IMG/VR virus record: IMGVR_UViG_2541047926_000010
DNA from: a virus
Lineage: Duplodnaviria > Heunggongvirae > Uroviricota > Caudoviricetes
DNA length: 33,170 bases
Strand: one strand, 5' to 3'
A program made the translations under genes and the position numbers. The notes under the pieces were generated by a model. It saw only the letters and a program-made list of their open reading frames with translations, was not told the DNA's origin and ran no database searches. Every line of letters begins with the position of its first letter. Positions within the stretch are counted from its first letter, which is position 1. Positions 2,723 through 27,249 of the stretch are shown here, one piece after another.

Positions 2723-3786
2723 AGCAGCTCTACCTCAACGTTTCCTAATTTGAGCCATTCGACTTTCGTGGCATCGATTATCGGTTGAATATTTGCCGAT
2801 GGTGTAACGATGTCATAGTCGGTAATACCCGGAATTAGAGAAATCAATGTCCCCGCCTGGCTGCGAATAAAAGCCACTCCAGGCTCTCGGCGCGAGTCAT
2901 CGTCCTCCAGCGTTCCGGCGACAGCCTGTTTGGCTGCTGCGAGGGTGATGCCCTCCAGTGATACCTTCACGAGGACGTCAAATGTACGGATGACAGGTAT
3001 GAGCACCAGCGTGTTTTTTGCTGTAACAGGCCGGACATCGTCAATGTGAGCCTGCACCCTGTCGATCACATCCTGAGATGGCAGCCCACCTGCAGACGTG
3101 ATCACAACATCAACGGTACCCGGCCCCCGCCGCAAAGGGTAAACATATGCGGCGGATACGCCTGATACCTCAAGCGCCCAGCGTTTGTAATCATATTTAT
3201 TGCCGCCTGCAGGAGGTCGGCGGATGATTTCAAGCAGACGAGCAAGCAGCTCTGCATCCGTTTCCTCATCTGTTCCGCCAGTCATCAGGCCTACTGTCAC
3301 TGTGCTGTCAAACCCATCAGGTGTTGTGGTCAGTGTGGCCGATGTGACGGAAGTGGTGTTACCAGTGGTTCCGGCCAGAGAAGACACTGCGTTTACCGAT
3401 GATTTTCCATCTGACCCGACAATAATATCTTCGGTTGTTGTCCACGAAACACTGTCGCGTTTGAACACAAGACCGGCAGCGGCCACCGCTCCTGGTTCGC
3501 CGGTAAACGTGGCAGGCCCGGAGGCGCTGTTGGCTGCTTTTTTGCTTAAACCACGTAAACGGGCGTGCAGATAGAGGAATTCCGAATCAGCAGTATCCGG
3601 AAAGATCTGACGGACTATCCATCCCTGATGCTGATAAAGCCCCTCGGCAACACTGGCTACACTCGATGCCCGGATGTACCAGTCGCTGTCCGGGCCCAGC
3701 GTATCATCTGACAACTGCAGGAGATTTTTGATATCCCGCAGAATGTCAGTGCGTATTTGCGCGGCATTTTTGGTAATGAATGGCAT
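2719..3786 (-). CDS. Baseplate J-like protein (Mu gp47-like)
   Basis: 355 aa; baseplate J-family features and synteny; overlaps both neighbouring genes. Confidence 0.8.
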   Translation of the reverse strand: MPFITKNAAQIRTDILRDIKNLLQLSDDTLGPDSDWYIRASSVASVAEGLYQHQGWIVRQIFPDTADSEFLYLHARLRGLSKKAANSASGPATFTGEPGAVAAAGLVFKRDSVSWTTTEDIIVGSDGKSSVNAVSSLAGTTGNTTSVTSATLTTTPDGFDSTVTVGLMTGGTDEETDAELLARLLEIIRRPPAGGNKYDYKRWALEVSGVSAAYVYPLRRGPGTVDVVITSAGGLPSQDVIDRVQAHIDDVRPVTAKNTLVLIPVIRTFDVLVKVSLEGITLAAAKQAVAGTLEDDDSRREPGVAFIRSQAGTLISLIPGITDYDIVTPSANIQPIIDATKVEWLKLGNVEVELL

Positions 3787-4136
3787 CAGCTGACCTTAAC
3801 CGGATATTTCCAGGTCTGCGGCGTTCCGCTCGCAGACGTGACGGTGATATGAAGCAGCATCCAGCCTTTTTGCCAGTGCTCTGCAGTAACGGAAATGGAC
3901 TGGGCGCGACCGTCGTCAATAATCGGTTGCAGGGCCTGCCGCGAATACTGCACCGCGAGTTGTTGAACGCGAGACACATCCTTTTCGCGGCGGAGTGTAT
4001 GCAAAAGAGAGCCCAGAGTTGGATCAGCCCACCATGAGCCAAGGGGCGTCATCAGCCGTAAGTAGACGGCATTCGCTAAAGAGTCTGAGCTGTCGCCGGT
4101 ATAATCGCCGGTCGTTGGATCAATCAACATTTCCAT
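3786..4136 (-). CDS. Mu gp46-like small baseplate protein
   Basis: 116 aa; synteny between spike and baseplate J genes. Confidence 0.65.
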   Translation of the reverse strand: MEMLIDPTTGDYTGDSSDSLANAVYLRLMTPLGSWWADPTLGSLLHTLRREKDVSRVQQLAVQYSRQALQPIIDDGRAQSISVTAEHWQKGWMLLHITVTSASGTPQTWKYPVKVS

Positions 4137-4189
4137 GCCGTAATACTACCGGCATGGAAATTTAAATTATCGGTGAAGGGGTTCAGTGG
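4137..4189 (-). promoter_or_regulatory. Candidate activator-dependent late promoter upstream of the gp46-like baseplate gene
   Basis: Minus-strand CCACTGAACCCCTTCACC (plus 4172-4189), identical to the copy upstream of the endolysin; 23-bp spacer to a -10-like TAGTAT. Confidence 0.45.
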
Positions 4190-4225
4190 GTATTGCTTTT
4201 GAAGGAGAACTTACGTTACCACAAA

Positions 4226-4831
4226 TTACATTTGCTGATTAGGTTTCTGCGTTGTGCCTGCATCACCGCCGTGGTCGTGGTCGTGACCGTCATAAGTCTC
4301 ACGCATGGTGTTCAGCGTAGACTTGCCGTCAGCGACTTCATTACTGCCTTTCAGCAATGGTGTATCAAAATCTGCCCGCTCTGAGGCTGTGGTTTTATAC
4401 GTTTTGGTATTAACAATATGTTGTTCGGTATTCACCGTGTGCTTTTTAGTATTAACGATATATTCATCGCAGTTTACTTCAATTATTTTTCCGCGCTTCA
4501 GAATAATGTTGCTTCCTTCATCCGAATAAATGGCAAGCTCACCACTTTTCAGGCTCTTTAGCCTGTATGCAGCGTGTTCCGTGGCAATCACCACGCTATG
4601 ACTGGTGCGCCCGTTAAGCGGGAGCACAATGGCTTTAGTCCCCCTGGGCGGGTTGGATGTAAAACCGTACTGCTGAAACATCTCCACATCCTGCAAAGAC
4701 TCAGTGGCCAGACCTTTACCCTGAATGGTCTGAATATCACCACCGCTGTTAACCCTTATTAAAACGCCCCTGAAGGCCTTTCTTATACGGTTTAACGCCG
4801 TGTTAATACGAGAGTCAATTTTGTTCCACAT
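4226..4831 (-). CDS. Baseplate spike / assembly protein V-like (Mu gp45-like)
   Basis: 201 aa; gpV-like N-terminal region; C-terminal VNT-K/E-x-H-x repeats and His-Asp-rich tail HDHDHGGD. Confidence 0.7.
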   Translation of the reverse strand: MWNKIDSRINTALNRIRKAFRGVLIRVNSGGDIQTIQGKGLATESLQDVEMFQQYGFTSNPPRGTKAIVLPLNGRTSHSVVIATEHAAYRLKSLKSGELAIYSDEGSNIILKRGKIIEVNCDEYIVNTKKHTVNTEQHIVNTKTYKTTASERADFDTPLLKGSNEVADGKSTLNTMRETYDGHDHDHGGDAGTTQKPNQQM

Positions 4832-6032
4832 CGATAATCTCCAGCTCTTTATTTACTTTGGCGCGACGCTTACGTGATTTGCGTTTTTTCGGATAAGCAT
4901 CCGGTATCCATATTCCATCCTCTTTGAGCCGCAGGGTGGTAATGGTGTTGTCTGGACGACCACCTGAAAACTCTCTTCCCATGAGGAAGTAAATGTCATC
5001 AATGCCATGTGGCTCGCTTCGGACACGAATACGCTGGCCCGGTTGCCATAACTGACCGTTCTCCATGCGATGGCCTTTAACAATTACTGTCAGATCAAAC
5101 CCGTTCAGACGGGCGTCAGCCATGGCCTTTCTCGCGCGATAATCAACCTGCGCCTGATTATCAGCATCACCAGCAACCATAATCTGCGGACGATAGAAAG
5201 GTACGGTACTGTCGCGAACGGTACTACGTAAGCCATGAAAGCCATTCTCTGCAGAGCCGGTGCTGTCATAAATTGCGTCGGCATCATCATCGTCTTCAGC
5301 CTCAGCGCTCTGATCATCAACGTCAATAACTTCCAGTCTTCCTGACTTTTTCCCCTGGCCGTGTCCCTGTGCCAGCATTGTCAGTTCAGAGAACGCACCG
5401 GTAATGGATGACCGGTCACTGAGATCGAGGACATTATTTCCCCGACCGTCACGATTCAGAACAAGCGTGGCTACAGGGTCTTTTGTGTAATCCGGCCCTC
5501 CAATTACCAGCGTGCCATCTGGCTCAAACCATGGCCATAACCCGCGTGCAGCAGCTGCACGCTCAAGGGTATCCCACGCACGTTCTCCGGGCTCCACGCT
5601 GACCTTGTCATTACGCAGGGATGACTCAGCCTCGATGCGGATGTTCGTTATCCCCAGCGGTCTGACAACCTGGGCGATCACCTCTTCAAGACTGAGCTGG
5701 CGGGAGGTAAAAACGGGTGAAGCGCAGTCAACAAGCACGGCTGCACCATCGCGACCGGAAAGAGATAAAGAAACCTGCTGACGGGATACCCGGCGCTGAA
5801 CCACATCCACCCGACCGGACATGACAACATCATTACCCACCCTGACCAGCACCGGCACACCACGTTTAATGGCCGGAGGGAAAATACCATCAGGCAGCCC
5901 AAGCGTTACGCTCCATGCATCGGAGGGGATCAGAAAATCGGAGTCAATCTGATAGCGGCTCCATGCACTATGGATTTTGCCATCAATAACCAGGCTCACT
6001 GTATTCTGCGAATCTTTATCTTGAGTAGGCAT
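4815..6032 (-). CDS. Baseplate hub protein (P2 gpD / Mu gp44-like)
   Basis: 405 aa; synteny downstream of the DNA circulation protein; gpD-like features. Confidence 0.75.
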   Translation of the reverse strand: MPTQDKDSQNTVSLVIDGKIHSAWSRYQIDSDFLIPSDAWSVTLGLPDGIFPPAIKRGVPVLVRVGNDVVMSGRVDVVQRRVSRQQVSLSLSGRDGAAVLVDCASPVFTSRQLSLEEVIAQVVRPLGITNIRIEAESSLRNDKVSVEPGERAWDTLERAAAARGLWPWFEPDGTLVIGGPDYTKDPVATLVLNRDGRGNNVLDLSDRSSITGAFSELTMLAQGHGQGKKSGRLEVIDVDDQSAEAEDDDDADAIYDSTGSAENGFHGLRSTVRDSTVPFYRPQIMVAGDADNQAQVDYRARKAMADARLNGFDLTVIVKGHRMENGQLWQPGQRIRVRSEPHGIDDIYFLMGREFSGGRPDNTITTLRLKEDGIWIPDAYPKKRKSRKRRAKVNKELEIIDVEQN

Positions 6033-12063: not shown

Positions 12064-12685
12064 TGTCTTTATCAGGCTGCTTAAGATCGTAACTGAGTCG
12101 GGTTTTCAGCCATGCCGGGTCATCGTCGGTGGTGGCACCGCCATAAATCTGGAACATATGATCAACATGGCCTTCCGGCGCATCCGTAAGCGGGTAACGC
12201 CCGTTCTCCAGCGCTGACTCAATCCATTTCGTGTCGAACTCGCAGGCAAAAACGGAAAATGCCTGAGTCTCTATCTGGGTGTTGAACAGCGTGCGCACGC
12301 GACCGGGGCTGAGCGGGTCAATTTTAATACCCGTATCCGCCATATCCTGACCGGACAGCAGACGACGAACGGCAGCAACAAGAATGTACGTACCGACCTC
12401 CTGTACGTGCGGCCCACCCATACGGGCCGCTTCTTCACTGCGCAGGCTGCGCTCGCCTACCACCACGACAAAGCGACCGTGCGTGACAAACCGTTGCCGT
12501 GCTGTGCTGTATGGCTCGGTTTTTTGGACCCCGCCAAACGTCACCCAGACGGCAGGCAGCTGGCGCAGTACCTCCGCAGGCTCGCCGTCCAGCTCGCCGC
12601 CGTAGGAGCGCACGTTCTTAGCCATACGGCCCATACCTTTGCGAAGCCGCTCCACGATGGCTTTTTCAATATCCGTAATCACCAT
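12026..12685 (-). CDS. Mu gp37-like head-tail joining protein (DUF1834-like)
   Basis: 219 aa; synteny; start overlaps upstream stop. Confidence 0.6.
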   Translation of the reverse strand: MVITDIEKAIVERLRKGMGRMAKNVRSYGGELDGEPAEVLRQLPAVWVTFGGVQKTEPYSTARQRFVTHGRFVVVVGERSLRSEEAARMGGPHVQEVGTYILVAAVRRLLSGQDMADTGIKIDPLSPGRVRTLFNTQIETQAFSVFACEFDTKWIESALENGRYPLTDAPEGHVDHMFQIYGGATTDDDPAWLKTRLSYDLKQPDKDNAAEDIISHEQN

Positions 12686-13113
12686 CAGAAACTTCCTCCG
12701 CCAGTCTGGTCACGTCCAAAGACGCGACCACCCGACACCATCCGCGCACCGGTTCCGCTTTTCACCACTTCCCCCGTCGTCGTGCGGCCCAGATTGATTC
12801 GCCCGGATGCAACTTTTTCCAGGTAACGAACGGTGTCCTCATACCGCTCGCGGATTTCCGCTGTCATCTGGGTCTCAGAGCCGCACAGAAGATAGCGGGC
12901 AATGTTGCAGCAGCGACCGACGAGAACACGGGGCTCATCAGCCCAGGGCACCGGATAGCGACCGCAGAGATATCCGTCGATTTCAGCGCTGGCCTGAACG
13001 AGTGCGCCGTTCAGCACATCATCGTCAATCTGCCCGGTGTAGTTGCGGTCGGTGAGCGACACGCATTCGCGCTCACCAAACGCCCTGACCATGTCCTCCC
13101 GGTTCGCGTACAT
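12685..13113 (-). CDS. Mu gp36-like protein (DUF1320-like)
   Basis: 142 aa; synteny downstream of the head genes. Confidence 0.6.
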   Translation of the reverse strand: MYANREDMVRAFGERECVSLTDRNYTGQIDDDVLNGALVQASAEIDGYLCGRYPVPWADEPRVLVGRCCNIARYLLCGSETQMTAEIRERYEDTVRYLEKVASGRINLGRTTTGEVVKSGTGARMVSGGRVFGRDQTGGGSF

Positions 13114-14849: not shown

Positions 14850-15965
14850 TTATTTGAGGTATTTCGCGACGCTTTCCGGGTCATTGCCCATCATTGAGCA
14901 GATGGCCGGGTCAATCGCATCATCTTCAGCACCCTGTGACGGGCGTGACGGAAGGCCTGCAGGCGGTTGCCCCTGAGTCTGACTGGTAGTCAGTGCGGCA
15001 ATCTTTGGCGCTTTTTCGATAAAGGCGGTAAGACTGGCCGGATCGGATTTCGCCAGTGATGCAGCCCATTCCTGTTGCGCCGGAAGCAGACGACCGTCGC
15101 TGAGGGCAACCGTAATCAACGCTTCAGCCTGCTGCATGGCGAGTGCGGCGGTATTACCCGCACCGGCACGCTCTGTCGCCTGCTGAACGGCTGAATGCAT
15201 GACCTCCACCGAAACCCACTTAGCCGGGTCAGGCGTGTCGAGTTTCGCCGTCAGGTCGGCGATGCTCTGCGCGTTCTGGTTCAGGATATCCAGCAGACTG
15301 ACCGACGCCGCTGCAGTCCCCTGTCCACCGGAAATCATGGTGATGATTTTTTGCAGCTCAGCCATGATCTCTTCTTTCGTTGAGGCGGTTGGCAGATTGA
15401 GCATCCAGCGCAGGTTGCTCAGTAGCTCGTTGAGAAATTCTTCATCCATTTCGGTCTGACCCTCTGTGGTTAAATGCGCGGCCATCAGGGAGGCGGCAGC
15501 AAGTAACACTTCCTCCATCCCGTCGACCGCTGGTGTATTGGTCAGCGCGGCGTTGAGCAACTCCAGCACCTGACCGGTTTTGTCGTAAGAAAATACGGGG
15601 GAAATAAAGCGATACTCTTTCGCCTCGACCATCGCAGCCGCAGCGGCTGTCCACTCGACATCGATGGCGAACAAACCTTCACCGTTCCGCCACTCCAGCT
15701 TTTTGAAGAATGCAGCTGCAGGCGCAGGCAGACCGTTTTTAGCGGCCCGAAGGGTCTGGTGTTCGTAGTCCAGGACGTAGGGGGTGTCGCGGGCATCAGC
15801 TGCGGCAATAAGGCGCTCTGCAATTTCCCGCGTCATCAGCCAGGCGGCGCATTCGGTCGGACGCCCGTCACGGGCGCGGAATTCACCAGCCGGGAAGAGC
15901 TGGATGACACCGGGAGTGGCGGTGTTAATTTCCTGGGTGAGTGAAGCGATGAGTGTCTTTTTCAT
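14850..15965 (-). CDS. Head protease / scaffold protein, Mu I-like
   Basis: 371 aa; Mu I-like N-terminal region; synteny. Confidence 0.8.
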   Translation of the reverse strand: MKKTLIASLTQEINTATPGVIQLFPAGEFRARDGRPTECAAWLMTREIAERLIAAADARDTPYVLDYEHQTLRAAKNGLPAPAAAFFKKLEWRNGEGLFAIDVEWTAAAAAMVEAKEYRFISPVFSYDKTGQVLELLNAALTNTPAVDGMEEVLLAAASLMAAHLTTEGQTEMDEEFLNELLSNLRWMLNLPTASTKEEIMAELQKIITMISGGQGTAAASVSLLDILNQNAQSIADLTAKLDTPDPAKWVSVEVMHSAVQQATERAGAGNTAALAMQQAEALITVALSDGRLLPAQQEWAASLAKSDPASLTAFIEKAPKIAALTTSQTQGQPPAGLPSRPSQGAEDDAIDPAICSMMGNDPESVAKYLK

Positions 15966-16020
15966 GGTGCCGACGATACGGCACCACTGGGGGGGAGGTT
16001 CAGATGAAGAGGTTCAGTGG
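15966..16020 (-). promoter_or_regulatory. Candidate activator-dependent late promoter upstream of the protease/scaffold gene
   Basis: Minus-strand CCACTGAACCTCTTCATC (plus 16003-16020; 16 of 18 match to the other two copies); 23-bp spacer to -10-like TATCGT; 7-bp-stem hairpin GGTGCCG/CGGCACC (15966-15985) next to the ATG. Confidence 0.45.
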
Positions 16021-16021
16021 A

Positions 16022-16231
16022 TTATCGCTGAGGATCGTTTTCTTTGGTTGTCGGCTTATCGGGTTTAGCAGACTGACGCTTCTGATGCCGACGGGCAAAG
16101 TATCGGTCAGTGAACCACTCAGCAACCTTTATAACCAGGCCCCCAAAGATGCCAATGAAAACCCACTGCTGCGGGGTGAAATAATCAAGGAAAGCTTTGA
16201 ATGTGTCCAGTTGCTCGCTCCCGTAATGCAT
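16022..16231 (-). CDS. Doubtful small ORF (69 aa, one predicted transmembrane helix) inside the G-I gap
   Basis: ATG 16231-16229 with weak ribosome-binding site; hydrophobic WVFIGIFGGLVIKVAEWF; an equally long antisense ORF exists, so coding status is uncertain. Confidence 0.25.
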   Translation of the reverse strand: MHYGSEQLDTFKAFLDYFTPQQWVFIGIFGGLVIKVAEWFTDRYFARRHQKRQSAKPDKPTTKENDPQR

Positions 16232-23243: not shown

Positions 23244-23472
23244 CGCGCACCTCTCTGGCTCGTTTGATGGACATATGTTTTGATGCCTGGCTCTGTGCCA
23301 CCCACGCGCCCAGATAGGTGAGATACAGTTCACCGGGTGTTTCGGGACGGGTAACGGTGAGCCAGACCAGCACGAAGGAACTGACCAGGAAGGCCAGAAA
23401 AACGATGGTGTCTGACGTAGAGAGACGACCGGTGGCCGGGTTCGTCACCAGATCGCGCAGAGATATTTTCAT
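23209..23472 (-). CDS. Holin-like small membrane protein
   Basis: 87 aa; hydrophobic IVFLAFLVSSFVLVWLTV; ATG overlaps endolysin stop (ATGA); between endolysin and spanins. Confidence 0.4.
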   Translation of the reverse strand: MKISLRDLVTNPATGRLSTSDTIVFLAFLVSSFVLVWLTVTRPETPGELYLTYLGAWVAQSQASKHMSIKRAREVRDVGSSPENPEG

Positions 23473-24113
23473 AGCGCCGCCTTAGCGACATTCAGCCGCG
23501 CCACGCGGTCAGCCTGACCTTCAGCCGGAGGGTTGATACGCCGGGTTACGGCCAGAAAATTGCCTTTGTCAGCCAGCTCGTTGCAGCCATTTGCCTTCCA
23601 GTACCAGGCAGCGCTGCGGGCTGCGTTGAGATACTCCAGTAACAAATCGGGATTCGCGATGAGATCGAGGCCCAGCGCCTTACCGCAAAGGCGGTAATTA
23701 TCGCGCAGGGTAATCTGAATCAGGCCACGTCCGCGAAAGCGCCAGCCATCGCCTGATGCTTCATTACCGTTACCCCCCTGATTTGCGTAAACATAATTGG
23801 CCATTTTTTCAGGATTACGGGTATAGCGGCGGGCAAATTCCACCTCTCTCGGCTCGATAATACGATTCTTATTGAGATCGAAGTCGCTGCGGAAAATACG
23901 CGCCACGCGCTCAGCATCTGAGTAATAGAGATTTTCACTGAGCCGACTGAAACCCGCGCTCTCATGGCCGGTTTGAGCAATAAAGGCGGCAAGTCGGGCG
24001 GGTGTATTAATTTCGAATTCAGCGGTGGCTTTACTGAATGGTTCAAACCAGCGTTGCGCCATTACTGGCGAAAGGCCTGCGGCTCGCTGAAATTGTGGGA
24101 GTGTTAAAAGCAT
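23469..24113 (-). CDS. Endolysin, glycoside hydrolase family 19 (chitinase-like)
   Basis: 214 aa; GH19-like motifs FRGRGLIQITLRDNY and AAWYW; no N-terminal signal-anchor-release segment. Confidence 0.8.
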   Translation of the reverse strand: MLLTLPQFQRAAGLSPVMAQRWFEPFSKATAEFEINTPARLAAFIAQTGHESAGFSRLSENLYYSDAERVARIFRSDFDLNKNRIIEPREVEFARRYTRNPEKMANYVYANQGGNGNEASGDGWRFRGRGLIQITLRDNYRLCGKALGLDLIANPDLLLEYLNAARSAAWYWKANGCNELADKGNFLAVTRRINPPAEGQADRVARLNVAKAAL

Positions 24114-24190
24114 AACGCCATCCGGTTAAAAAGGAATGGCGTCAGTATTTCATCGGGTTAGGTGAATAATCAGGTGAAGGGGTTCAGTGG
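24114..24190 (-). promoter_or_regulatory. Candidate activator-dependent late promoter upstream of the endolysin gene
   Basis: Minus-strand CCACTGAACCCCTTCACC (plus 24173-24190); 23-bp spacer to -10-like AATACT; imperfect hairpin 24115-24142 directly before the ATG. Confidence 0.5.
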
Positions 24191-24191
24191 T

Positions 24192-24671
24192 TTATTCAGT
24201 CACATCTATTATTATGGGTTCATTCGATTCTGGTTCAACATCTTTTTTCACCATGTATTCCCCCTTTGCTTTAGCTTCATCAATCAATGGGAGATATCTA
24301 TAAACAATTTTCCATACTTCTTCATCTTGTTTAAAGTCAAGATTGCGGCATGCTTGCCTCTCATTCATAGGGTCTGTTGAGTTCATTTTATCAGGATTGG
24401 AAACCAATAAAATTTTCCTCCATGCGCAAGATTTCGTTTCGTTTTTCTTTATGAAATCAAACCCGCCCGTTTTAGAACTGCCTGTCTGATATGCAAAAGC
24501 TAAATTCCTTTGTGCCTGATAGCCGTCTTTAATCGCCGCGTTAATGAAATCATTCTCAGTCTTAATCGATCCCTGTGCTTGCTCAGGAATATTTAGTTTT
24601 GTTAATTGGCCGTTGTTAGCCATGCTGTTAAAGCTAATTAAAATACAACCGGCAGCAATCAAACATTTCAT
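24192..24671 (-). CDS. Secreted protein of unknown function (AT-rich moron)
   Basis: 159 aa; Sec-type signal MKCLIAAGCILISFNSMA; AGGAG 5 nt upstream of the ATG; by eye clearly more AT-rich than the flanking phage genes. Confidence 0.65.
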   Translation of the reverse strand: MKCLIAAGCILISFNSMANNGQLTKLNIPEQAQGSIKTENDFINAAIKDGYQAQRNLAFAYQTGSSKTGGFDFIKKNETKSCAWRKILLVSNPDKMNSTDPMNERQACRNLDFKQDEEVWKIVYRYLPLIDEAKAKGEYMVKKDVEPESNEPIIIDVTE

Positions 24672-24679
24672 AACTACTC

Positions 24680-25114
24680 CTAAAAAAGTGAGTTTTGTGT
24701 TGAGGTTCCATTACTCTTTTCCGCAGCAAGAAGCTGCCAACCGAAGCGATCACTAAAACCATACTTAGGGCAAAGAAAGGTCATGGCCATAAGAGAGGAT
24801 GAACCTTGTTCACGCACTTCGGCGAACTCGGCGAGAAAGCGGCGGTTGCGTAATTCACGAAGGGCACGATCACAGCGCGGTAAATAGAGAACTTCTCCGC
24901 CGAAATTCTTGATGAGTAATTGGGTTTTATCATCGCCGATAGTATTGCGCAGGAGGGCTGCGCGGCTGGCCCCCATAGCGCGGAGGCCTTTACCTATCGG
25001 GAACGTGGTGCCACCAAAAGCAGAAAGAAGCTGCTCGGTCGCCGGGAAGCCTATCAGGTCAGCTATTTGAATCACTGCTGATGGCAGCAGCTCCGTTACC
25101 TGTTCCAGATTCAT
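24680..25114 (-). CDS. Mor/C-family transcriptional activator
   Basis: ATG 25114 (MNLEQVTELLP; track ORF begins upstream at 25150); GGEVLYLPR segment resembles the Mor/C conserved core; directly downstream of gemA. Confidence 0.75.
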   Translation of the reverse strand: MNLEQVTELLPSAVIQIADLIGFPATEQLLSAFGGTTFPIGKGLRAMGASRAALLRNTIGDDKTQLLIKNFGGEVLYLPRCDRALRELRNRRFLAEFAEVREQGSSSLMAMTFLCPKYGFSDRFGWQLLAAEKSNGTSTQNSLF

Positions 25115-25535
25115 TATTACGCTCCCGCTTTTTTCGCCGACTCGCATCAATGCTGAGAGCCTGCATGAGTTTGGTTAACTGTTCAGTCGTCAACCACTCG
25201 ATGTATTTGACGTGAAACATATGATCGCACATTTTCTCGGCATAATTCCACGGACGTTTTGCATCTGCAAGTAATGCGTTAATTTTAGAAAGAATTGACT
25301 CGCGCGTATTGGCAACCTTTGGGCGTCGACCGTGTTTTACTGAGTAGCGAGGAAAACCCTTGTCATGCATATATTCCATGACAGCCTGCAGCTCGTCGAG
25401 GGTGCATTTAGTGGATGATGTTTTACCGTTGCATAAGCGAGACAGAACACTACGGTAGGTTACCTCATCCCACCCCAGATATGCCTGACCGGCTTTAATT
25501 GCCCCTATAAGGCCTCGTTTTGCTGGCGTGGACAT
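25059..25535 (-). CDS. gemA: GemA-like protein (DUF1018-like)
   Basis: ATG 25535 with AGGAG 7 nt upstream; N-terminal MSTPAKRGLIGAIKAGQAYLGWDEVTYRSVL typical of the GemA family; followed by a Mor/C gene as in Mu. Confidence 0.75.
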   Translation of the reverse strand: MSTPAKRGLIGAIKAGQAYLGWDEVTYRSVLSRLCNGKTSSTKCTLDELQAVMEYMHDKGFPRYSVKHGRRPKVANTRESILSKINALLADAKRPWNYAEKMCDHMFHVKYIEWLTTEQLTKLMQALSIDASRRKKRERNNESGTGNGAAAISSDSNS

Positions 25536-25563
25536 AATATTTCTCCTGTTGGTTGTCATTATC

Positions 25564-25587
25564 GCAGGCACTTTATGAAGTGCCTGC
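25564..25587 (-). promoter_or_regulatory. Perfect 10-bp inverted repeat with 4-bp centre upstream of gemA
   Basis: Plus GCAGGCACTT TATG AAGTGCCTGC; lies between the last accessory early gene and the gemA ribosome-binding site; no U-tract follows. Confidence 0.4.
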
Positions 25588-25602
25588 TGTAATGACTTAC
25601 TT

Positions 25603-27003: not shown

Positions 27004-27249
27004 CTATTCATCTCCCTGGTCGAACAAGATTCGCGAGTAACCCGCATTGGTAGATACTTCCAGCCATCCATCACACCGTTCACCGGTTCTGAGATTTATC
27101 ACCCGAGAATGCTGGTATTGAGAGCCTCGGATGTCTTCCAGTTCATCATCGCTGAAAAACATCGGCTCTCCGCAGTGAGGGCAGTAGCATCCGTAATCAC
27201 CATCAGCGCGCCCAATTTTGTTAACTATGAGAATTTCGTTGGTAGCCAT
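27004..27249 (-). CDS. Small Cys-rich (zinc-ribbon-like) early protein, 81 aa
   Basis: ATG 27249 with AAGGAG 7 nt upstream; C-Y-C-P-H-C and a further Cys. Confidence 0.5.
   Translation of the reverse strand: MATNEILIVNKIGRADGDYGCYCPHCGEPMFFSDDELEDIRGSQYQHSRVINLRTGERCDGWLEVSTNAGYSRILFDQGDE

Follow-up and report, generated by a model that had tools for sequence, protein, structure and literature searches.

The gap between the gp45-like baseplate spike gene and the gp46-like baseplate wedge gene of a Mu-like prophage probably holds a third Mor/C-type late promoter, with a leaderless start of gp46 and a hairpin that masks the gp46 AUG on read-through RNA; we hold this reading as a whole with moderate confidence. 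The window, that is, the whole stretch of 33,170 nucleotides that was analysed, is a Mu-like prophage in which all long ORFs lie on the minus strand. Its gene content comprises the transposase A/B end, GemA, a Mor-family protein, a GH19 endolysin, terminase, portal, protease I, capsid, sheath, tube, tape measure, gp43 to gp48 and tail fibres. A 96% identical prophage is present in one complete genome, E. coli FDAARGOS_1303 (NZ_CP070045, at 1.49–1.53 Mb), where the gp45–gp46 gap is identical to that of the window. Among deposited phages, there is almost no DNA similarity, with only two short matches of 65% and 74% identity. The features of the gap, its flanking genes and the candidate activator gene are as follows:

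4226-4831, minus strand: gp45-like baseplate spike gene, 201 aa (Pfam PF06890 Phage_Mu_Gp45, E 1.7e-27)
4228-4226, minus strand: stop codon TAA of the spike ORF, the gene upstream of the gap
4172-4189, minus strand: activator box CCACTGAACCCCTTCACC, 36 nt after the spike stop and 35 nt before the gp46 ATG
4185-4174, minus strand: box dyad, TGAA (4185-4182), CCCC, TTCA (4177-4174), centred between 4180 and 4179, at -43.5 from A4136
4162-4171, minus strand: A/T-rich spacer GATAATTTAA, about -35 to -26
4150-4161, minus strand: hairpin 5' arm ATTTCCATGCCG, -25 to -14, upstream of the predicted start site
4143-4148, minus strand: -10 hexamer TAGTAT, -12 to -7, inside the 9-nt loop 4141-4149 and ending 6 nt before the ATG
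4129-4140, minus strand: hairpin 3' arm CGGCATGGAAAT, -4 to +8, which holds a GC-rich discriminator and the start codon
4134-4136, minus strand: gp46 start codon ATG, with A4136 as the predicted +1, the seventh base after the -10 and the reference for the dyad centre at -43.5
3786-4136, minus strand: gp46-like baseplate wedge gene, 116 aa (Pfam PF07409 GP46, E 7e-20)
24680-25150, minus strand: Mor/C-family activator gene (Pfam PF08765 Mor, E 1.4e-7), directly after GemA (25059-25571)

In the mechanism that we propose, the Mor/C-family activator would bind TGAA-N4-TTCA at -43.5 and help sigma-70 RNA polymerase to use the -10 TAGTAT with no -35 element. Transcription would begin at A4136, and the baseplate and tail-fibre operon would open as a leaderless mRNA. 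The inverted repeat would join the promoter spacer (-25 to -14) to the segment from -4 to +8. RNA initiated at the promoter would carry a free 5'-terminal AUG, its 5' arm never being transcribed, and read-through from the upstream head/tail operon would carry both arms, which would close over its AUG with -21 kcal/mol. In that case gp46 translation would require initiation at its own promoter. If this is true, the same 40 bp serve as promoter spacer, -10, start site, start codon and fold-back mask. The identity of gp46 is also given by the PGAP annotation of the 96% identical E. coli copy, and gp47 comes next, with overlapping start and stop. At the other end of the gap, TAATTTGTGGTAACG (window 4214-4228, minus strand) starts with the spike stop and is conserved in enterobacterial relatives despite a different downstream spacer. 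Its distance to the box varies and it has no second copy in the window; it seems tied to the end of gp45, not to the promoter.

Copies of the activator box lie at 4172-4189, at 24173-24190 and, with two mismatches, at 16003-16020. A search for the 18-mer with at most three mismatches gave three matches in the window, all on the minus strand, against 0.03 expected by chance. They stand 35–60 nt upstream of the starts of gp46, the GH19 endolysin (23469-24113) and protease I (14850-15965), so that several copies head late operons. The preliminary description had placed the 18-mer 36 nt past the spike stop and 35 nt upstream of the gp46 ATG, and our coordinates agree; it was also right that a second copy precedes gp46, while its count of two falls short by the mismatched copy at 16020-16003. 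The same three gene classes follow the box in viral contigs. In an unbiased scan of viral contigs for the box alone, which returned 94 distinct hits, gp46 homologues followed in 22 cases, with the start codon exactly at the predicted +1 in 19. Homologues of I followed in 14 cases (ATG at +2 in 11) and GH19 endolysins in nine, all nine with A-11, T-7 and a leader of about 24 nt. The other 49 hits precede none of these three and place a start codon at the predicted +1 in no case (0/49); some are chance matches and others are promoters that precede unrelated lysis genes.

The same phage encodes a Mor/C-family activator, and the product of 24680-25150 (PF08765) is the candidate protein to bind the box dyad; its resemblance to Mu Mor or C is limited to the linker motif. 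One Mor/C-family gene was found in the window, where small ORFs were scanned in part, and this differs from Mu. A single such gene suggests a two-tier cascade, early and then late, rather than the three tiers of Mu. Between the Mor-family gene and the endolysin late promoter lies a 159-aa ORF (24192-24671, minus strand) with no Pfam match.

The geometry of the promoter was compared among relatives. Homologues of gp46 with 42–100% identity were collected from viral contigs and genomes, the latter from Enterobacteriaceae, Chromobacterium, other Neisseriales, Desulfovibrio, Pseudomonas, Snodgrassella and others, and gave 86 distinct upstream sequences. A box matching at least 7 of 8 positions defined a box-positive sequence, and 41 of the 86 were box-positive. 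Counted from the start codon as predicted +1, the dyad centre in these 41 lies at -43.5 (26), -44.5 (5), -45.5 (9) or -46.5 (1). The 26 distinct relatives with the centre at -43.5 differ in their spacers, which are free to vary except that A-11 and T-7 are present in 26/26 and A-8 in 24/26. An xAxxxT hexamer stands 5–8 nt before the ATG in all 41 box-positive relatives. In the window, the dyad overlaps the -35 region, a position that depends on the predicted +1, and a recognisable -10 is present with no canonical -35; a sigma-70 consensus scan finds no -35/-10 pair here. The dyad bound by Mu C in Mu late promoters is likewise centred at -43.5 (PMC2582627).

Mu late promoters thus resemble the gp46 promoter in having no -35, a recognisable -10 and a dimeric-activator dyad at -43.5. 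The arrangement also recalls Mu Plys, PI and PP, with copies before lysis genes, the protease I gene and baseplate/tail genes and a Mor-family gene after gemA, and the gp46 promoter is, by this analogy, the third late promoter and the putative functional equivalent of Mu PP. Unlike in Mu, the prophage box is TGAA-N4-TTCA and not TTAT-N6-ATAA, and the third promoter occupies the gp45–gp46 gap; in Mu, where these two genes overlap, PP is located within gene N. Mu late genes also have leaders and annotated ribosome-binding sites, in contrast to the start codon at the predicted +1 of gp46. An ATAA upstream of the box was considered as a half-site of the Mu type TTAT-N6-ATAA and rejected, since it is the stop of the upstream gene in relatives and sister promoters and the TTAT partner is absent.

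The choice of the -10 bears directly on where the transcript starts. A second hexamer, GATAAT (4171-4166), could place the start near 4160, making the hairpin a gp46 5' leader that acts as a stabiliser or is opened by a factor, as in Com/mom. It matches TATAAT at 5/6 positions and directly follows the 18-mer, and GATTAT stands in the same place at the endolysin copy. The spacer columns in relatives, however, are T-rich from -33 to -28 and hold no conserved -10-like bases, the key A at -34 carrying 0 bits, and GATAAT right after the box was ruled out as a -10 by these unconserved positions. The dyad centre would, moreover, fall near -20, a repressor-like position, and A-11 and T-7 of the hexamer 6 nt before the ATG do not vary. 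In the annotation of the close E. coli relative, the only annotation inspected for a com-like gene, neither com nor mom is annotated. We regard a start near 4160 as very unlikely. The Mu Com/mom system is comparable as another hairpin of the Mu family that occludes a start region, with the difference that the mom hairpin is part of the regular transcript and needs Com to open it, whereas the transcript of the gp46 promoter itself is predicted not to contain the hairpin.

With TAGTAT as the -10, A4136 is the seventh base after the hexamer, which is the usual position of a transcription start. The ATG at 4136 is the true start of gp46, as ATGGA is conserved across relatives and a second in-frame ATG at 4130 is not. 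No Shine-Dalgarno sequence lies upstream of it, and an SD-like motif is found in only one of the 41 box-positive relatives. When the 32 phage genes of the close E. coli copy were ranked by anti-SD duplex, gp46 (-3.2 kcal/mol) was the second weakest and protease I (-2.8 kcal/mol) the weakest. Given the dyad at -43.5, the invariant A-11/T-7 and the missing Shine-Dalgarno sequence, we infer a late promoter of the Mor/C type, with a transcript that is most likely leaderless and begins on the gp46 AUG, a prediction well supported by the comparative evidence. The preliminary description had made a leaderless start conditional on TAGTAT being the -10, and the same three lines of evidence favour that condition. 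Leaderless starts would explain the missing ribosome-binding sites of gp46 and I, a feature that can mislead gene callers. Some relatives, namely Klebsiella phage ST405-OXA48phi1.1 (L255), L117, L131 and L208, carry GTG in place of ATG at the predicted +1 of gp46. For leaderless starts, GTG works poorly in E. coli and is unusual in enterobacteria, and its presence at +1 in some relatives counts against the leaderless reading.

A further group of homologues forms a second promoter clade of the Pseudomonas type (L032, L034, L037-L042, L058, L059, L232 and L233), in which the box reads about CTTAAACC-N5-CTGAAAT and the spacing from -10 to ATG is unchanged, again with no SD. These sequences suggest an activator of different specificity acting on the same leaderless design. 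The stem in this clade is a weaker, two-part one in which CCAUG is also paired with CAUGG.

The other two promoters of the window have hairpins of their own:

15964-16020, minus strand: protease I promoter, with the box at 16020-16003, the -10 TATCGT at 15978-15973 and the gene at 14850-15965
15987-15979 with 15972-15964, minus strand: protease I hairpin, flanking the -10 and reaching the AU of the start codon
24113-24190, minus strand: GH19 endolysin promoter, with the box at 24190-24173, the -10 AATACT at 24149-24144, the predicted +1 at 24137 and the gene at 23469-24113
24144-24134 with 24123-24113, minus strand: endolysin hairpin, covering the SD-like GGAUGG and the A of the AUG

The protease I hairpin, with arms GUGGUGCCG-UAUCGU-CGGCACCAU, folds at -16.4 kcal/mol (z -4.6), and the start codon stands at about +2 to +3 from the predicted start. 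The endolysin hairpin folds at -14.5 kcal/mol (z -4.8) with its 5' arm at about -7 to +4; in the endolysin class generally, the 5' arm spans about -9 to +4 and the 3' arm extends up to the AUG. Both hairpins show compensatory variants in relatives. A run of seven C (window 15990-15996, minus strand) occupies the I promoter spacer between box and -10. In relatives it is interrupted or shorter and the distance from box to -10 shifts by 1 nt, and it may be a slippage-prone tract that tunes promoter geometry. The late box of the I promoter begins 2 nt past the stop of a 69-aa ORF (16022-16231, minus strand) between the virion morphogenesis gene and protease I, which matches Pfam Phage_holin_2_1 (E 1.3e-8) and in place of which the PGAP annotation of the 96% identical E. 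coli prophage has a hypothetical protein encoded by the other strand. In the box-positive lysis promoters of six viral contigs (L116, L119, L121, L144, L167 and L196), a U run comes after the hairpin over the predicted start, as in GCACCCA...UGGGUGC UUUUUUUU. These hairpins resemble intrinsic terminators that lose their 5' arm when the late promoter fires.

At gp46, the inverted repeat consists of 12 perfect pairs (4161-4150 with 4140-4129) around the 9-nt loop 4149-4141. It had previously been described as an 11-bp repeat that encloses the start codon and carries TAGTAT in its loop; the enclosure and the loop are as described, and the length is 12 bp. The -10 lies within the loop simply because of the geometry of arms and promoter. 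As RNA, the hairpin folds at -21.4 kcal/mol (z = -5.9), and none of 200 shuffled sequences folds as well. Among the eight local inverted repeats with a 9-nt seed in the 33-kb window, it is one of the two longest. Perfect inverted repeats that extend to the ATG and measure at least 7 bp occur in 22/41 box-positive relatives versus 1% of shuffles, and those of at least 9 bp in 17/41 versus 0.12%, so that about half of the box-positive relatives have no strong perfect repeat. Rfam 15 covariance models applied to 3600-4700 gave one chance-level snoRNA hit outside the hairpin (E 0.33, below the gathering score).

Despite a constant symmetry centre at -9 or -10 in gp46 promoters, the lineages carry at least 10 different inner stems (GCCG, GTCGC, GCCGC, ACCGATA, GCAGC, CCCCGA, CGGCCA, CCCCA, ATCGCCA, CCCCGCA and CTGCG among them), and the stem therefore covaries. 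Pair statistics were taken from an ungapped alignment of 25 sequences that had not been fitted to any structure. In this alignment, 72% of cells are paired versus 32–41% with slid partners, and both sides have changed in 9 of 14 pairs. Its covariation score of 0.262 compares with 0.07–0.105 for slid and 0.122 for shuffled controls, and none of 500 shuffles reaches it. A MAFFT alignment of all 57 sequences gave 54.5% paired, a weaker count that reflects its mixture of the two promoter clades and of one-base shifts. Chance, or coding and composition bias, might be thought to produce such a repeat and box, given that the CATGG of the 3' arm is fixed by Met-Glu/Asp codons and part of the arm is thus constrained on other grounds. 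Such an origin is nevertheless refuted by the frequency of repeats of at least 9 bp relative to shuffles, the three box hits and a covariation above every control, with the fold z-score of -5.9 pointing the same way, and we consider it hardly conceivable.

A conserved palindrome may also act as DNA, either as a cruciform or supercoil-sensitive element on the -10 or as a symmetric protein site that tunes promoter opening. The fixed symmetry centre, which lies at about -10.5 in the I promoter, would suit such a role, as would the nearly exclusive Watson-Crick pairing in the stem, where the departing pairs do not favour G.U (16) over A.C (22), and the fact that Mu C acts at Plys, PI and PP during isomerisation to the open complex. 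The inner arms, however, are wholly different among lineages and leave no conserved recognition sequence, bulged variants exist, and the I-promoter repeat, at just 7–9 bp around a 6-nt loop, is probably too short to extrude as a cruciform. The endolysin-class repeat, centred near +10, shifts with the translation start and is not fixed on the -10, which argues for an RNA mask over a DNA feature. We think a DNA-level function rather improbable, and a putative RNA-level mask over the start region fits better than a DNA feature of the -10, although the counts of G.U and A.C do not speak for selection on sense RNA.

The masking reading follows from the position of the arms. The 5' arm lies upstream of the predicted start site, and therefore only read-through RNA would fold the stem and bury the AUG; the promoter's own transcript, if it starts where predicted, begins 3' of that arm and cannot form the helix. 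On upstream-initiated transcripts, the helix is predicted by folding, as distinct from structure probing, to sequester the AUG. In the 96% identical E. coli copy (L001), the probability that the gp46 AUG is unpaired is 0.00 in the read-through context and 0.87 in RNA from +1, figures to be read beside the finding that, among all 32 phage genes compared, several other operon genes, some translationally coupled, have equally buried starts, so that accessibility does not set gp46 apart. Occlusion of the start codon on read-through transcripts had been proposed in the preliminary description, and the covarying stem, with a 5' arm outside the predicted promoter transcript, supports it. That description had set occlusion and a leaderless start against each other as alternatives; the comparative evidence supports both together in place of a choice between them.

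The endolysin copy speaks less clearly for masking, as the probability of an unpaired AUG there is 0.41 on read-through RNA and 0.34 on the truncated transcript, which is no gain and counts against the masking model. Since gp46 is flanked by two late operons, early-versus-late timing cannot be the purpose of its mask, but it could be for the endolysin copy. There the benefit is clear, because only 2 nt, and no terminator, separate the box from the stop of the ORF before it. For gp46 itself, the lateness of both flanking operons counts against a clear benefit of silencing read-through copies, and we infer such silencing, like leaderless translation, with corresponding caution.

The hairpin might instead serve mainly the upstream operon, as a weak terminator, a 3'-end stabiliser or an RNase processing site on transcripts from the I promoter, with AUG masking incidental. 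The lysis-promoter hairpins with U runs in four other relatives (L116, L119, L121 and L144) are intrinsic-terminator-like, relatives from Pasteurellaceae and Neisseria lack a repeat at the ATG but carry a terminator-like hairpin ahead of the box, and Mu has annotated predicted terminators a short way before Plys and PI as well as inside the middle-promoter feature. At gp46, however, the stem is followed by GUUGAUUG with no direct U tract, and a Rho-independent terminator is not supported, the terminator scan making no call; on the gene strand from 3700 to 4900, which covers the gp45–gp46 gap, no terminator-like site was found. The pairing also includes the AUG itself (CCAUG with CAUGG) consistently across lineages. 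Upstream terminators and ATG hairpins are distributed in a complementary way, at 0/5 versus 34/78, an anecdotal contrast as the five represent one Neisseria lineage. A role chiefly for the upstream operon appears unlikely on this evidence, and read-through insulation may be achieved differently among lineages.

A promoter inside a hairpin that masks a translation start has precedents, to which masking at gp46 can be compared. In T4, those transcripts of e (lysozyme), soc, 49 and I-TevI that begin upstream form a helix in which the SD and/or AUG is sequestered, and late-promoter transcripts of the same genes are without the 5' part of the helix and are translated (PMC3014915). The same masking logic has been proposed for B. 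subtilis sigG read-through transcripts (PMC5942855) and for IS10 (Davis et al. 1985, as cited). T4 late transcripts differ in keeping an SD leader, whereas here the start is predicted on the AUG with the -10 in the hairpin loop. The promoter would also depend on sigma-70 and a Mor/C-type activator in contrast to the gp55/gp33/clamp system, and both operons flanking it are late. The Plys and PI regions of phage Mu itself (L082, AF083977; 10448-10486 and 18022-18052) also fold into hairpins, with start sites inferred from annotated promoter features. At Plys, the region just after the -10, around the inferred start site, pairs with the lys start codon (CUGCCAUCA with UGAUGGCGG, z -2.1), and at PI it pairs with bases just before the I ribosome-binding site (z -5.0). 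The design in which a promoter cuts a hairpin may be ancestral in the Mu family.

Leaderless phage transcripts are likewise familiar. The mRNA of lambda cI from PRM is leaderless, and the Thermus phages YS40 and Lalka27a have leaderless transcripts in a genus where these are the norm. The predicted gp46 mRNA is like them in its 5'-end start codon, its lack of an SD and a -10 lying 6–7 nt upstream. Enterobacteria make few leaderless mRNAs, and the classic examples come from repressor genes and not from genes that open phage structural operons. The promoter class, the hairpin mask cut by a promoter and leaderless phage transcripts are thus all known already. The literature searched contained no leaderless or start-site data relevant to Mu-like late promoters and no report of a Mu-like phage whose late structural operons open with a leaderless gene. 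For proteobacterial Mu-like phages, the combination of an activator-dependent late promoter, a start on the AUG of a structural operon and a -10 looped out by a fold-back mask appears to be undescribed in that literature.

We extend this reading more tentatively, and with some doubt, to a large clade of Mu-like myovirus prophages, in which the protease I and gp46 operons would be leaderless from Mor/C-type promoters and their first genes translated only from activator-initiated transcripts. The hosts would include Enterobacteriaceae, Chromobacterium, other Neisseriales, Desulfovibrio, Ralstonia and Pasteurellaceae. If true, two of the three late operons would be leaderless, and the hairpin would be a terminator-free, built-in insulator between temporal or stoichiometric classes. 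If confirmed, the T4 principle of a promoter in a masking hairpin would also apply to transposable phages, where the start on the AUG makes it as compact as it can be. The clade would also provide a natural activator-switchable leaderless system with E. coli and Klebsiella hosts for studies of 70S-type initiation. In unannotated Mu-like prophages, late promoters and correct starts can be sought with the rule of box, 23 nt, xAxxxT, 6–7 nt and ATG.

Two further repeats in the window were recorded. The longest local inverted repeat lies at 25555-25596, at the start of the GemA-like gene, with 19-nt arms that are 89% complementary and a 4-nt loop. An exact 18-nt direct repeat, ATCCGTAATCACCATCAG on the plus strand, occurs at 12671-12688 and 27189-27206, in two distant genes.
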